The notes beneath the pieces were generated by a model. It saw only the letters and a list, made by a program, of their open reading frames with translations, did no database searches and had not been told where the DNA came from. Of a stretch of DNA of 64,000 nt, positions 48,153-52,582 are shown one piece after another. Origin of the DNA: Escherichia coli. GTDB lineage: Bacteria > Pseudomonadota > Gammaproteobacteria > Enterobacterales > Enterobacteriaceae. The position numbers and the translations under genes are program-made. Numbering within the stretch: the stretch's first letter is position 1; each line of letters begins with the position of its first letter. The DNA is taken from assembly GCF_024223415.1 (NCBI RefSeq), contig NZ_CP100500.1. One strand, 5' to 3'.

Positions 48153-48617
48153 TTATCTGAGGCATTGCTCTCGAATGTATAGCTGTGCCCCTTCAAGTTG
48201 TTTTTGCATTATTATCAGTCGCTCTCTGAGGGTGAAATAATCCCGTTCAGCGGTGTCTGCCAGTCGGGGGGCGGCTGCATTACCCACGCCGGAGGCGGCG
48301 GTGGCTTCACGCACGGTCTGACAGACTGCTCTGATGCGCAACCGACGACGACCAGCGGCAATATCATCACGAAGAGCATCATTTTCAGCTTTCGCATCAG
48401 CTAATTCCTTCAGGTATTTTGCATCGAGTGCAGTAATATCACGCTGGCGCTGCTGCATGTCAGTAATGGCTGCATTCGCCTGGCTGAGTTTTGTCTTCGC
48501 ATCATCTCTCTGCTCTTTGTAGATGATGGCATTATCGCGGTAATGGGCTATTGCCAGCAACAGCGCACCACTGACCACCAGTAGAATAACAATCACCGCA
48601 TACAGAACCCGTTTCAT
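48153..48617 (-). CDS. i-spanin Rz
   Basis: Start at internal ATG (MKRVLYAVIVILLVV, N-terminal TM); coiled-coil periplasmic domain; track ORF to 48668. Confidence 0.85.
   Translation of the reverse strand: MKRVLYAVIVILLVVSGALLLAIAHYRDNAIIYKEQRDDAKTKLSQANAAITDMQQRQRDITALDAKYLKELADAKAENDALRDDIAAGRRRLRIRAVCQTVREATAASGVGNAAAPRLADTAERDYFTLRERLIIMQKQLEGAQLYIREQCLR
48215..48397 (-). CDS. o-spanin Rz1 (lipoprotein embedded in Rz, +1 frame)
   Basis: 60 aa; lipobox LVVVGC; proline-rich; wholly inside Rz. Confidence 0.85.
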   Translation of the reverse strand: MRKLKMMLFVMILPLVVVGCASEQSVRPCVKPPPPPAWVMQPPPDWQTPLNGIISPSESD

Positions 48618-48618
48618 T

Positions 48619-48837
48619 TCACCACCAGCGTATCTGAGCAATGAAATAACCGGAGGCCATAATCGCAAACACCAGCCAGAAAAGAATGAATTTCCAGGTG
48701 GATAATTTTTCAGCCATAGTTCGAATCTCCCGAATCAGTTTGCTAAAATCAAACACACTTTCTCCTTTGGCTTTTCCGGAGTCAGGAAACACAAAAAACC
48801 CGACTGTTCGCGCAATCGGGGGTCTGCTCTTATTCAC
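48619..48837 (-). CDS. small hypothetical membrane protein between endolysin and Rz
   Basis: ORF up to 72 aa, possibly 32 aa from internal Met; hydrophobic C-terminal helix; stop overlaps Rz start region. Confidence 0.3.
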   Translation of the reverse strand: MNKSRPPIARTVGFFVFPDSGKAKGESVFDFSKLIREIRTMAEKLSTWKFILFWLVFAIMASGYFIAQIRWW

Positions 48838-48914
48838 TACTTCAATTCATTTATGACTAATATCGTGTTATCCACCCGCGTTGGCCAACGTCATTTTTCA
48901 GAGAAATATTCTGC

Positions 48915-49448
48915 TTATCTGTCGATCCCCCAGCACACTAACGCGCTCTCCTGATCACGACGAATAACCTGACCGTAACAGTTATTTGAACGAATGCGGC
49001 AATCACGCCCCCTGTCCTTAATCCACCAGCGAATCGCCTCGCATGCACCTTTACGATCACCAGCATTCAGCCGTTTATAAAACGTCGACGGAAAACACTT
49101 ACCGGGGCCAATGTTATAGGGACAAAATGACGCGATACCCGCTTTTTGTGGTTCGGTCAGTGGTACTTTAATATTGCGCTCCACCCATGCCAGAGCCTTA
49201 TCACGCTCAATAGCGTTAACCTGGTCGCATTTTTCCTTCGACAGTTTCATATTGGGAAAAACGGGTTTTCCATCCACCACTGTGGCACCCCGACAGATGG
49301 TCCATATGCCGGAACCATCACGGTATGCCATTGTGTGGTTACCTTCTTTTTCGTCCAGAAACTGGTCAAGTATCTGAGGAGCAGATGCACCAGCACCAAT
49401 CAGCGCCAGAACGGCAGCCGACAGGCCGTATTTGACTTTTACGTTCAT
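48915..49448 (-). CDS. SAR endolysin (T4-lysozyme-type, R21-like)
   Basis: 177 aa; N-terminal signal-anchor-release segment; catalytic E-x8-D-x5-T (EGNHTMAYRDGSGIWT). Confidence 0.9.
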   Translation of the reverse strand: MNVKVKYGLSAAVLALIGAGASAPQILDQFLDEKEGNHTMAYRDGSGIWTICRGATVVDGKPVFPNMKLSKEKCDQVNAIERDKALAWVERNIKVPLTEPQKAGIASFCPYNIGPGKCFPSTFYKRLNAGDRKGACEAIRWWIKDRGRDCRIRSNNCYGQVIRRDQESALVCWGIDR

Positions 49449-49553
49449 GGATATTTATCAGGATTTATCGATTTCTGAACCCAGGATATGTTTATCTGTC
49501 CCAACCTGTTGAATCAGGCGGAGAACAGGTAAATACAATCAAGAGGATTATTT

Positions 49554-49826
49554 ATGGACAATAACACCATTTCTCTTCAGGAGTTGCTCGACTGCATTTC
49601 CAGGCTTCGGGATGATGTTAATGCCCTTACTGTCGCATTTTCATATCTGGCATTGTCAATTCCCAGGGAACAAATGCAACCAACACTGGCATCGCTCCAG
49701 CTTGAATCACACAGCCCAAAATGGTCCCAGGAACAACAAAATTCCTTCAAGTGGCTGGTGGCATTACTGGAAGATAAATATGCTGTTAAAATTAAAATTC
49801 CGGCGGAGTCTTCAGAGAACCAGTAA
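49554..49826 (+). CDS. hypothetical protein, opposite strand within lysis cassette
   Basis: 90 aa; RBS aagagga upstream; protein-like composition while the antisense frame is low-complexity. Confidence 0.45.
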   Translation: MDNNTISLQELLDCISRLRDDVNALTVAFSYLALSIPREQMQPTLASLQLESHSPKWSQEQQNSFKWLVALLEDKYAVKIKIPAESSENQ

Positions 49827-50136
49827 TTTTTCCCGGTAGCTTTACTTTGTAAGTTATCCACACATTCTGCGCCTCTAAAATTATGGGGTGCTTTTCTGGC
49901 GACAGCTCATTCCCTTCACATAACCCGGCAGCAACATCCAGGAAGACCTGTCTGATTCTCCTTCTGGCTGCTGCCTCATAAAACTCCAGTGCAGCACCTT
50001 CAACACGATCCATAGTGATATCAAGGTCAAAAATCTCACCGTCAAAGCGTTCTTTGTCTTGTAAGGCTAAAGTTACCGCAACTTTATTCTCAAAATTACG
50101 GACTCCTTTCACAACCAGTTCGTAGACTTGAGTCAT
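49792..50136 (-). CDS. hypothetical protein between holin and endolysin (possibly DUF1327/YdfR-like, unverified)
   Basis: 114 aa; starts 5 nt after holin stop on the late-gene strand. Confidence 0.55.
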   Translation of the reverse strand: MTQVYELVVKGVRNFENKVAVTLALQDKERFDGEIFDLDITMDRVEGAALEFYEAAARRRIRQVFLDVAAGLCEGNELSPEKHPIILEAQNVWITYKVKLPGKITGSLKTPPEF

Positions 50137-50140
50137 TGGA

Positions 50141-50356
50141 TTACTCTCCTCTCTCAGCCTTACGCCTGTCTTCTTTAATCTTGAAATAAAGGTTAGTCAG
50201 ATACGTCAGCATGCCAAATACCAGACTACCCAATACACCTATTGCCGCCCACTGTGAGGGCGTGACTTTATCGAGCAACTGTAAAAACCAGTAGCCAGCA
50301 CTGCCTGCAGAGGTGCCGTAGGCGATGCCCGTTGTTAACTTATCCATGGATTTCAT
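50141..50356 (-). CDS. pinholin (phage 21 S-like), dual-start motif
   Basis: Internal start [26 protein letters not shown]... closely matches S21; two Met codons 3 codons apart; track ORF to 50440. Confidence 0.85.
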
Positions 50357-50539
50357 AGCCTCACCTCCGCAGATAACGGATGGTGTACACGGTTTGGTTC
50401 GAAGAAGGAAAAAAGTTACATTAACGTAAGGCCCGAACATCTATTCAAAAAGAAAAACGCCAGCAATTATTCTGGCGTAGCTGAAAGCATCATACAATTA
50501 TCAAATACGAAAATTACAAAATCATTAAAACGCATCACG

Positions 50540-51280
50540 TTACATCATGTCTTTTTCTAAAAAAAATCTTGATGAATATTGATGGGGAGGAACACCAAAA
50601 TATCTTCTGAAAACACTTACAAAATATGACGTGTTTTCATAACCGCATATCTCAGCAACTTTTCCAACAGAATATAAATTGTAGCTTAATAACCTTTCCG
50701 CCATCACCATTCGCTCTTCAAGAATTAACTTACTAAATGATAAGCCTTCGTGCTTTAATTTTCTTTTTAACAGGCTTTCACTCAGATACAGTCTTGAAGA
50801 TATATCACAAAGTCTCCATGCTGCAGATATATCCGTGTGAATAATAGCCTTAACTTTACTTCCTAAACTATTAAGACATCCAAATAAAAAACTTTGCACT
50901 GTTTTCTCTGAAGATAAGATAGCAAGACATGCAAGTGATATTTGATTTCTAACAAAATCCACAGTTCTGCCATCAAAATTCAAGCATGCAATCAAATTCT
51001 TTAACAATGAAAAATCTTCACATTCCACCATCAAGTATGCCGGATAAAACCTTCTTACAGAAAAAGGTGAGAGTGTGTTGTTTTTAAAGAAATCATTAAC
51101 TGTTTTCTCTTCAACATCTACGATCATTACATGATCTATATTTGATGAAAAAAAATCTTTTAAATTGTAATCAATGAGAACAGCACTTCCTTTTTTAAAC
51201 AAAATATCTTCTTTACCAATTCGGACATCAAACGAGTTCAACACCAAAATGATAGAACATATGTATGGCATATTATCCAC
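50540..51280 (-). CDS. AraC-family transcriptional regulator (prophage cargo)
   Basis: 246 aa; AT-rich; C-terminal AraC HTH (GYENTSYFVSVFRRYFGVPPHQY). Confidence 0.8.
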   Translation of the reverse strand: MDNMPYICSIILVLNSFDVRIGKEDILFKKGSAVLIDYNLKDFFSSNIDHVMIVDVEEKTVNDFFKNNTLSPFSVRRFYPAYLMVECEDFSLLKNLIACLNFDGRTVDFVRNQISLACLAILSSEKTVQSFLFGCLNSLGSKVKAIIHTDISAAWRLCDISSRLYLSESLLKRKLKHEGLSFSKLILEERMVMAERLLSYNLYSVGKVAEICGYENTSYFVSVFRRYFGVPPHQYSSRFFLEKDMM

Positions 51281-51622: not shown

Positions 51623-52582
51623 TTAATTTACCATCAGTCTTAGAGCCAGTTCGTCCGGATAGGGATCGAAGTAATTCTGTGTAAGCAAGTAGTCATTAGG
51701 ATACTCACCCAGATAATGCTTCAGCAGAGTCAACGGCGCAAGAAGAGGTAATGTGCCAGAACGATAGTTAAGTATAACCTCGCTCAACTCTTTACGCTGG
51801 CGTGTACTTAAGTAGTTACTAAAATACCCCTGTATATGCATCAGCACATTCGTGTGATTTTTACGTGATGCAGGTTTTCTGAGAATCGCCATCAGCTTAT
51901 CACGATACACCTCAAAGTATGATTCAAGGTCCGCCCACTCGTGTATTGCAGCCACAAATGGTCCCATATCTTTATAGCCTGCCTGACTATGCGCCAACAA
52001 CTGAAGCTTATAACGACTATGAAAAGCTAATAACTCTCTTCTTGATAATTTCTCCTTGTAAAGGTGATTGAGCTCATGCAAAGCAAAAACTCTTTCAACA
52101 AAATTCTCACGAAGCACTGGATCATGTAATCGCCCATCCTCTTCAACCGGTAGCCAGGAAAACTTTTCCATCAAAGTGCTCGTAAATAGTCCCACTCCAT
52201 CTTTACGACCTCGATTACCATTTTCATCATAGACACGCACGCGCTCCATGCCACAGCTGGGAGATTTAGCACAAACCACAAACCCCGATACATCCTTTAA
52301 TTTGTCCATATAAGAACGACTAAACTCTGTCATTCTCTCTGTCACATCCTCATTCTGGTCGTGGCTGAAACACATCCGTATATTTCCTTGCGTCGAGCGC
52401 ACAAGACGTAGAGCAGGACGCGGAACTGGCAGCCCTATAGCCATTTCCGGACATACTGGTCTGAATGTTACCCATTCCACTAATTTGTCCATTAAAAAGT
52501 CAGCTCTTTTGTGACCACCATCAAAACGAACAGCAGAACCGGCCAAACAACCGCTGATTCCAATCACAGGTTTTTTTATCAT
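51623..52582 (-). CDS. DUF523 (TudS-like) / DUF1722 fusion protein
   Basis: 319 aa; N-terminal Cys-containing DUF523-like region (GISGCLAG...CPEM...SPSCG), C-terminal YbgA-like region. Confidence 0.6.
   Translation of the reverse strand: MIKKPVIGISGCLAGSAVRFDGGHKRADFLMDKLVEWVTFRPVCPEMAIGLPVPRPALRLVRSTQGNIRMCFSHDQNEDVTERMTEFSRSYMDKLKDVSGFVVCAKSPSCGMERVRVYDENGNRGRKDGVGLFTSTLMEKFSWLPVEEDGRLHDPVLRENFVERVFALHELNHLYKEKLSRRELLAFHSRYKLQLLAHSQAGYKDMGPFVAAIHEWADLESYFEVYRDKLMAILRKPASRKNHTNVLMHIQGYFSNYLSTRQRKELSEVILNYRSGTLPLLAPLTLLKHYLGEYPNDYLLTQNYFDPYPDELALRLMVN

Follow-up and report, generated by a model that had tools for sequence, protein, structure and literature searches.

Genes between the holin and the endolysin

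The 64,000-nt stretch of Escherichia coli DNA analysed here (contig NZ_CP100500.1 of assembly GCF_024223415.1; hereafter the window) contains part of a lambdoid prophage whose late region is encoded on the minus strand. We examined the interval between the start codon of the endolysin gene R and the stop codon of the holin gene S in this late region (positions 49449-50140, 692 bp). Two open reading frames (ORFs) occupy it: ydfR, a late-strand gene for a protein of 114 amino acids (aa) of the DUF1327/YdfR family (49792-50136, -), and a convergent ORF of 90 aa on the opposite strand, here called ORF90 (49554-49826, +). We consider it likely that these are two unrelated accessory genes, the usual late-strand passenger ydfR and a moron-type cargo gene, and not lysis components.

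The flanking genes are readily assigned. The upstream one (50141-50356, -) encodes an EssD-like S21-type class II holin of 71 aa, which matches PF04971 'Bacteriophage P21 holin S' at 5e-35, carries the dual-start sequence MKSM and is called essD by the Prokaryotic Genome Annotation Pipeline (PGAP). R (48915-49448, -) encodes an rrrQ-type lysozyme of 177 aa (PF00959, E = 2.7e-23; phrog_7) that is annotated as lysozyme or rrrQ in matching genomes. Ala, Gly and Ser abound at its N-terminus, a composition that would predict a signal-anchor-release (SAR) endolysin. A first-pass annotation of the DNA had named these flanks as S21-like and R21-like, and its description of two ORFs in ~690 bp was accurate as well: the convergent genes overlap at their 3' ends by 35 nt (49792-49826), and ORF90 does have the good ribosome-binding site that had been claimed, with the Shine-Dalgarno sequence AAGAGGA (49541-49547, +) 6 nt 5' of its ATG.

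YdfR, the late-strand passenger

The 114-aa protein matches PF07041 over residues 1-112 with 138.9 bits (E = 6.7e-41; gathering cut-off 25 bits), so that the DUF1327 membership suggested in the first-pass annotation holds. It also belongs to phrog_406/2091, and PGAP labels it 'YdfR family protein'. Some part of ydfR was matched in 4205 of the 5426 complete E. coli genomes that formed our prevalence set, the DUF1327 domain is encoded by 101 phage records, and the family is essentially limited to Escherichia and Shigella. The gene order S-ydfR-R recurs in the Qin prophage of K-12 (essQ-ydfR-rrrQ) and in the phages PhiR40_1, BP-4795 and mEp460, where the gaps are just 50-63 nt. ydfR is the default passenger of S21-type cassettes in E. 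coli.

Within the family, the N-terminal part (residues 1 to ~112, ending in GSLKTPP) is conserved and the C-terminal ends are variable; the proteins are 103, 114/116, 169-211 or 268 aa long. A 213-aa late-strand protein (locus L162, 1825-2466, -) joins the coiled-coil of the 183-aa form to the C-terminal domain of the 268-aa form and has no DUF1327 N-domain, indicating that the domains of this family shuffle independently. Two cassettes from the IMG/VR database (L011 and L023) are disturbed at ydfR, one by an insertion of ~1.4 kb inside the gene and one by ~100 nt near the junction with the holin gene.

The only relative for which we found functional data is YdfR of K-12 Qin. It belongs to the same PF07041 family and occupies the same slot on the late strand, with an S21-type holin on one side and lysozyme on the other. 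The two proteins are 85% identical over residues 1-74 of the window protein, the region for which binding to the N-terminal half of RNase E has been reported. They differ at the C-terminus: K-12 YdfR has 103 aa and diverges after approximately residue 77, whereas the window protein has 114 aa and ends in ITGSLKTPPEF. The Qin cassette also carries no reverse ORF; its ydfR stop codon overlaps the rrrQ start, and there is thus no space for one.

For the K-12 protein, bacterial two-hybrid assays have shown an interaction of residues 1-72 with RNase E 1-597, the tagged protein co-purifies Rne 1-598, and a nucleic acid that resists DNase, i.e. RNA, co-elutes with it (PMC13232886). By homology, the catalytic half of RNase E is a probable binding partner of YdfR in the window, and RNA a possible one. 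It is acidic and predicted from its sequence to be soluble, with a maximum of 0.78 in the Kyte-Doolittle 19-residue windows that we used as a measure of membrane segments.

ORF90 is a genuine coding gene

ORF90 is 273 nt long and matches phrog_2411 from end to end (E = 5.9e-53, positions 1-90 of 90); PGAP annotates its product as a hypothetical protein (WP_071792331). Its conservation was assessed in 54 distinct R-ORF90-ydfR-S cassettes from IMG/VR, a set that was picked by ORF90 similarity and is therefore biased to intact copies. ORF90 is free of indels in all 54 and intact in 50 of them, and the GAGGA core of its Shine-Dalgarno sequence is retained in 11 of 11 distinct upstream variants. 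The ratio of nonsynonymous to synonymous substitution rates (dN/dS) was 0.37-0.39 for ORF90 and 0.42 for ydfR; R and S are under stricter constraint (0.10). ORF90 is present in 1124 of the 5426 genomes, including BL21(DE3), UTI89 and strains of sequence type 131 (ST131), and a protein is annotated by PGAP under the match in 59 of 60 records taken as an even spread of the 1125 E. coli records with a match. In BL21(DE3) the order essD-ydfR-ORF90-rrrQ-Rz lies in a Rac prophage remnant between sieB/ydaF and trkG (locus L180, 1399690-1407969), where ORF90 has the locus tag ECD_RS07140 (WP_000370546.1).

Could ORF90 be a chance reading frame, the shadow of a real gene on the other strand? A 94-aa ORF (49577-49861, -) covers nearly all of it in antisense; most copies keep this frame open, and its apparent dN/dS is lower still, at 0.26-0.31. 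That value is an artefact, since the wobble-sharing frame of two other reverse ORFs described below, ORF86 and ORF104, gives 0.42-0.59 despite many stops. In about one fifth of the copies a stop interrupts the antisense ORF at codon 14, it lacks a plausible start or ribosome-binding site, and distant homologues were found only for the plus-strand protein. The artefact and the plus-strand homologues together effectively refute the shadow reading, which we regard as extremely improbable. We conclude that ORF90 is a genuine coding gene, the decisive evidence being its distant homologues (see below).

The protein would have a mass of 10.3 kDa and is acidic, with an isoelectric point of 4.8. It is predicted to be soluble and to fold into three helices (predicted local distance difference test score 75.5), and its maximum Kyte-Doolittle window is 0.93; in such windows, we found a membrane segment neither in ORF90 nor in YdfR. 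Searches of ORF90 and its relatives against Pfam, NCBIfam and PADLOC gave no matches, and none of the PADLOC anti-phage defence models matched ORF90 or YdfR even at E <= 1. A search of solved structures by sequence returned no match for ORF90, and no structural match was informative. The literature on ydfR/DUF1327, lysis-cassette morons, the BL21 Rac prophage and the protein accessions yielded no report of ORF90 and no expression data.

Edges of the ORF90 insert

A comparison with cassettes that lack ORF90 defines the inserted segment. Homology to these cassettes breaks at ~49800 (query positions 348-352) and at ~49506-49514, which gives an insert of ~285 nt. An imperfect direct repeat is found at its borders. 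Read on the minus strand, the right copy, TCCGGCGGAGTCTTCAGAGAACCAGTAA (49799-49826), is the genuine tail of ydfR (GSLKTPPEF); read on the plus strand, it encodes the last codons and the stop of ORF90. The left copy, TCAGGCGGAGAACAGGTAA (49514-49532), repeats the ydfR 3' tail in degenerate form, marks the left edge of the insert and overlaps a small hairpin (CCTG/CAGG). In PhiR40_1, where the site is empty, there is a single repeat copy and it forms the end of ydfR, so the final nine codons of ORF90 plus its stop lie inside the ydfR tail. The site is filled in the window, in Chlobot, in vB_EcoS-783R2 and in the BL21 Rac remnant, and empty in PhiR40_1 and BP-4795. The terms 'inserted' and 'cargo' used in the first-pass annotation are thus apt for ORF90, a genuine gene that some related lysis cassettes have and others do not.

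Between the insert and R lies a short spacer (49449-49513) that is conserved in cassettes with ORF90, with ORF86, with ORF104 or with no reverse ORF; BP-4795 and PhiR40_1, both of the last kind, retain it. By alignment, part of this R-proximal spacer is also found 5' of ORF90-family genes in tail-operon contexts.

The insert has a GC content of 42%, similar to the 44% of ydfR, compared with 50% for R and 51% for the whole window. Across the 54 cassettes, the synonymous divergence of the ydfR-ORF90 block was ~0.07 versus 0.78 for S and 0.32 for R. This is the usual mosaic pattern, to which the selection of loci by ORF90 contributes.

The ORF90 family outside lysis cassettes

An exhaustive search of 1.84 billion representative proteins with an ORF90 profile (E <= 1e-3) returned 20 proteins. 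Several represent the close, Escherichia-type ORF90 in fragmentary or frameshifted form, and roughly nine come from other genera or settings and are distant relatives; E values across the profile matches ranged from 4e-31 to 9e-5. The distant relatives align with ORF90 colinearly from end to end at 26-54% identity and share with it the core ELL..I..LR..VN.L..AFSYL.F...E....T(I/L).(A/S)L.(F/Y)ES.N.

Their genes occur in diverse places. In Atlantibacter hermannii, one lies in reverse orientation between the lambda-like tail genes M and L (gpM/gpL), and a second phage lineage, whose protein is just 39% identical, has one in reverse orientation at the same junction. A Klebsiella relative is likewise reversed and adjoins the DUF1441/terminase cluster. 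Another forms part of a pyrC-dinI-X-bssS-solA locus on a chromosome, where it shares the strand of its neighbours, and that of Sodalis ligni stands beside an oxidoreductase gene. A 54% identical paralogue (WP_000976359.1) is carried by 75 E. coli plasmids, the majority of which are predicted to be conjugative; on the one IncF plasmid that was inspected, it is located downstream of an autotransporter gene. The chromosomal and plasmid members have no DUF1327 neighbour. IMG/VR added just two more loci for distant members.

ORF90 thus belongs to an Enterobacterales small-protein family that has no Pfam or NCBIfam model. The spread of its relatives over tail operons, plasmids and chromosomes argues that the family is cargo and not lysis machinery. 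That the sequence has been conserved, to identities as low as 26%, in places with no lysis genes shows that the protein itself is under selection.

Other reverse ORFs in the same slot

ORF90 is not the only reverse gene at this junction. ORF86 (phrog_2572; locus L083, 1077-1337, +) is found in phage 2H10, in PhiR12 and in Qin-like prophages, in 313 of the 5426 genomes. It adjoins YdfR forms of 169-211 aa and overlaps their 3' end by 53 nt. The copy in 2H10 is unannotated. ORF104 (gp06 of the Stx2-converting phage 86; locus L086, 1474-1788, +) also occurs in O104:H4 strains and was counted in 89 genomes. Its neighbour is the 268-aa YdfR or the 213-aa protein that has the same C-terminal domain and no DUF1327 part. 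With ORF90 in 1124, ORF86 in 313 and ORF104 in 89 genomes, an opposite-strand gene at this position is a common variant and no oddity. The arrangement is therefore not 'unusual', as the first-pass annotation had it, all the less so with some part of ydfR matched in most E. coli genomes; neither ORF is rare.

Both ORF86 and ORF104 resemble ORF90 in slot, reverse orientation, approximate size, the shared R-proximal spacer and the position of an upstream hairpin, and they overlap or abut the convergent ydfR-family gene. However, neither sequence nor profile comparisons detected a resemblance to ORF90, and their YdfR partners are longer (169-268 aa). Homology among the three was not supported by BLASTP (E = 0.71) or hhalign (probability <= 1.4% with both shallow and enriched ORF90 profiles). 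The convergent partner ORFs showed no significant similarity to each other or to the YdfR tail either (all E > 0.1); against the tail there is just a 12-residue resemblance, ITGSLKTPPEF versus IFGDLKKPPSY.

One of the Qin-like prophages with ORF86 has a cspA-type thermoregulator (RF01766, 160.7 bits) 5' of cspB, beside its lysis cassette (locus L083, 2746-3185, -).

Upstream hairpins

A hairpin is located at a conserved position 5' of the reverse ORFs, with a stem sequence that varies by lineage. The window copy spans 49495-49530; further copies were located in loci L181 (4930-5000), L183 (4925-5000), L188 (~400-455), L189 (~770-820), L196 (~1190-1268) and L086 (~1400-1440). Distant members of the ORF90 family have a second leader hairpin that sequesters a Shine-Dalgarno sequence and whose loop, ATGGCTGATTAA / ATGGCTGATTAAC, is almost invariant. 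The loop sequence ATGGCTGATTAAC reads as a Met-Ala-Asp-stop mini-ORF 20-27 nt 5' of the main ATG. In the window this second hairpin is degenerate. Rfam gave no match in the region or in the related leaders.

A stretch of 47 nt is 81% identical (E = 6e-7) between L183 (4905-4951) and L086 (~1374-1420). The L183 copy comes from an Atlantibacter prophage and stands 5' of an ORF90-family gene at gpM/gpL; the L086 copy comes from a lysis cassette of E. coli and stands 5' of ORF104, which is unrelated. On its other strand, it reads as a remnant of a gene tail (...PPL..*), like the ydfR end in BP-4795.

It is conceivable that these elements belong to an undescribed mobile moron-cassette system, in which the ydfR tail (GSLKTPP) and the R-proximal spacer form a docking site for exchangeable reverse small genes that bring their own structured leader or recombination site. 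The presence of at least three unrelated occupants (ORF90, ORF86 and ORF104), each with a hairpin at the same upstream position, may point in this direction, as may the finding, in prophages of Atlantibacter and Klebsiella, that the upstream element appears to have moved together with an ORF90-family gene, to the gpM/gpL junction and to a site near the terminase. We regard such a system as unlikely.

Cargo genes or lysis regulators

ORF90 agrees in several respects with the moron concept of Juhala and Hendrix. Like the morons of lambdoid phages, it is extra DNA that some related phages carry and others lack at a single late-operon junction; morphogenesis and lysis would not need it, and it is lower in GC than its neighbours, although ydfR is similar. 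Morons are independently expressed inserts in phage operons, examples being bor and lom of lambda and the 'ant moron' of P22 (PMC2629481). ORF90 differs from them in that it overlaps the 3' end of its neighbour and is flanked by a duplicated tail of the target gene, and in that our consensus scan identified neither a promoter nor a terminator of its own.

On the reading that we favour, the Q-dependent late promoter would drive ydfR along with S, R and Rz, and the ydfR product, a soluble cytoplasmic protein, would act on RNA metabolism late in infection and not on the cell envelope. ORF90 would be a moron-type insert that sits backwards at the ydfR 3' tail between the true tail and its imperfect duplicate. 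Its synthesis would not depend on late transcription and would presumably take place in the lysogen, a timing that we infer from the orientation of the gene and from the behaviour of other morons (PMC2629481). The small protein may then act by binding to a target in the host or the phage.

Some observations weigh against this reading. In 81 of 84 loci, ORF90 adjoins the 114-aa form of YdfR, and the remaining three are cut by contig ends or disrupted. The two genes also stay together in phiSTEC1575-Stx2k, where S-ydfR-ORF90 is followed by different holins and an M15 peptidase. Such linkage is compatible with a functional tie between ORF90 and ydfR too, although adjacency alone would produce it. 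Within 48800-50600, the consensus scan detected no sigma-70 promoter, nor did it reveal a terminator 3' of ORF90. The single promoter candidate, TTGAAT-19 nt-TACAAT, is not convincing, the TACAAT lying too near the Shine-Dalgarno sequence to serve as -10. The motif GGATATGTT in the R-proximal spacer was also considered as a promoter of the reverse ORFs and rejected, because BP-4795 keeps it and has no reverse ORF. As for a role of YdfR with RNase E, overexpression of the K-12 gene altered few transcripts (PMC13232886).

The first-pass annotation had raised the possibility of a lysis modulator. In that case ORF90, YdfR or both would tune the triggering of the holin or the release of the endolysin, in the manner of an antiholin or timing factor. 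The position of both genes inside the lysis cassette fits this idea, as does the fact that ydfR is nearly always found in a lysis cassette among the phage records examined; in addition, PMC13232886 cites a screen that ties K-12 ydfR to envelope integrity. The antiholins and lysis regulators known from lysis cassettes, such as S107, S21-71, P1 LydB, P2 LysA and LysB, are likewise encoded by small genes among the lysis genes. However, S107, S21-71 and P2 LysA are membrane proteins, whereas ORF90 and YdfR appear to be soluble, and ORF90 is encoded on the opposite strand and has relatives outside lysis cassettes. PHROG assigns neither protein to its lysis category. Many working cassettes also do without one or both genes: the isolated phages PhiR40_1, BP-4795 and mEp460 have S21-type cassettes that lack ORF90, and phage 21 and DLP12 are not known to carry ydfR. 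A lysis modulator is thus quite unlikely.

We likewise give little credence to the idea that ORF90, and similarly ORF86 and ORF104, forms a cognate pair with the convergent protein, perhaps as an inhibitor made in the lysogen against leaky YdfR. It is true that each reverse ORF goes with one C-terminal form of YdfR (ORF90 with 114 aa, ORF86 with 169-211 aa, ORF104 with 268 aa or the 213-aa protein) and that a convergent ORF overlaps the 3' end of the ORF90-family gene, by 7-35 nt, in five of five phage contexts. Yet genes that are adjacent or overlapping would be co-inherited in any case, the partner ORFs show no significant similarity to one another, BP-4795 has the 114-aa YdfR without ORF90, and the family members on chromosomes and plasmids manage without a DUF1327 gene next to them. 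Very unlikely, in our view, is a cis-antisense function, in which transcription of the plus strand across the 3' end of ydfR and the R-proximal spacer would dampen read-through or translation of R in lysogens, the protein being secondary. The convergent arrangement with its overlap and with no terminator between the genes would suit such a function; so would the use of the same slot and orientation by three unrelated ORFs and the conserved hairpins upstream of them. Against it, the protein sequence is conserved to such low identity where there are no lysis genes, and the consensus scan identified no promoter. We prefer to see ydfR and ORF90 as two unrelated accessory genes.

Neighbouring genes

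The downstream end of the cassette is formed by a gene for an Rz-type spanin (48153-48668, -; PF03245, E = 2.6e-48; phrog_13, Rz-like spanin), in which the ORF list shows an embedded Rz1-like ORF of 60 aa (48215-48397). Directly 5' of the holin gene, there is a terminator-like hairpin with a T-run on the late strand (50457-50478, -). The holin frame itself stays open for 28 more codons 5' of MKSM (50357-50440), the whole ORF being 50141-50440.

Positions 49450-50140 are 100% identical to E. coli strain GDSC2BY4G. The gene order in that strain is Q antiterminator, lipocalin, YbgA-family protein, AraC-like regulator, essD, YdfR family, the opposite-strand hypothetical protein, lysozyme and lysis protein, with an IS2 element between lysozyme and Rz (locus L001, 6846-8074) that is missing from the corresponding segment of the window (48669-48914), so that the window stems from another strain or another copy of the prophage. 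Between Q and the holin, the window encodes, as cargo, an AraC-family regulator of 246 aa in an AT-rich gene (50540-51280, -; 32% GC) and a YbgA-family protein (51623-52582, -) with 2-thiouracil desulfurase and DUF1722 domains. The lipocalin gene in this region of the matching genome is on the opposite strand.

Implications

The cassette is a standard S21-type holin/endolysin/spanin set with common passengers, an ordinary and widespread variant of a known arrangement, and has little consequence for lysis biology. Of the two genes between holin and endolysin, the passenger ydfR is partly characterised, and ORF90 is an uncharacterised member of a dispersed family of small proteins. The sole unexpected items are the hairpins and the mini-ORF leader, which lie mostly outside the window; together with the recurrent use of the junction, the conserved leader offers modest leads on how morons are acquired and controlled. 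The presence of ORF90 in the standard laboratory strain BL21(DE3), in UTI89 and in ST131 makes its role directly testable in strains for which omics data abound.

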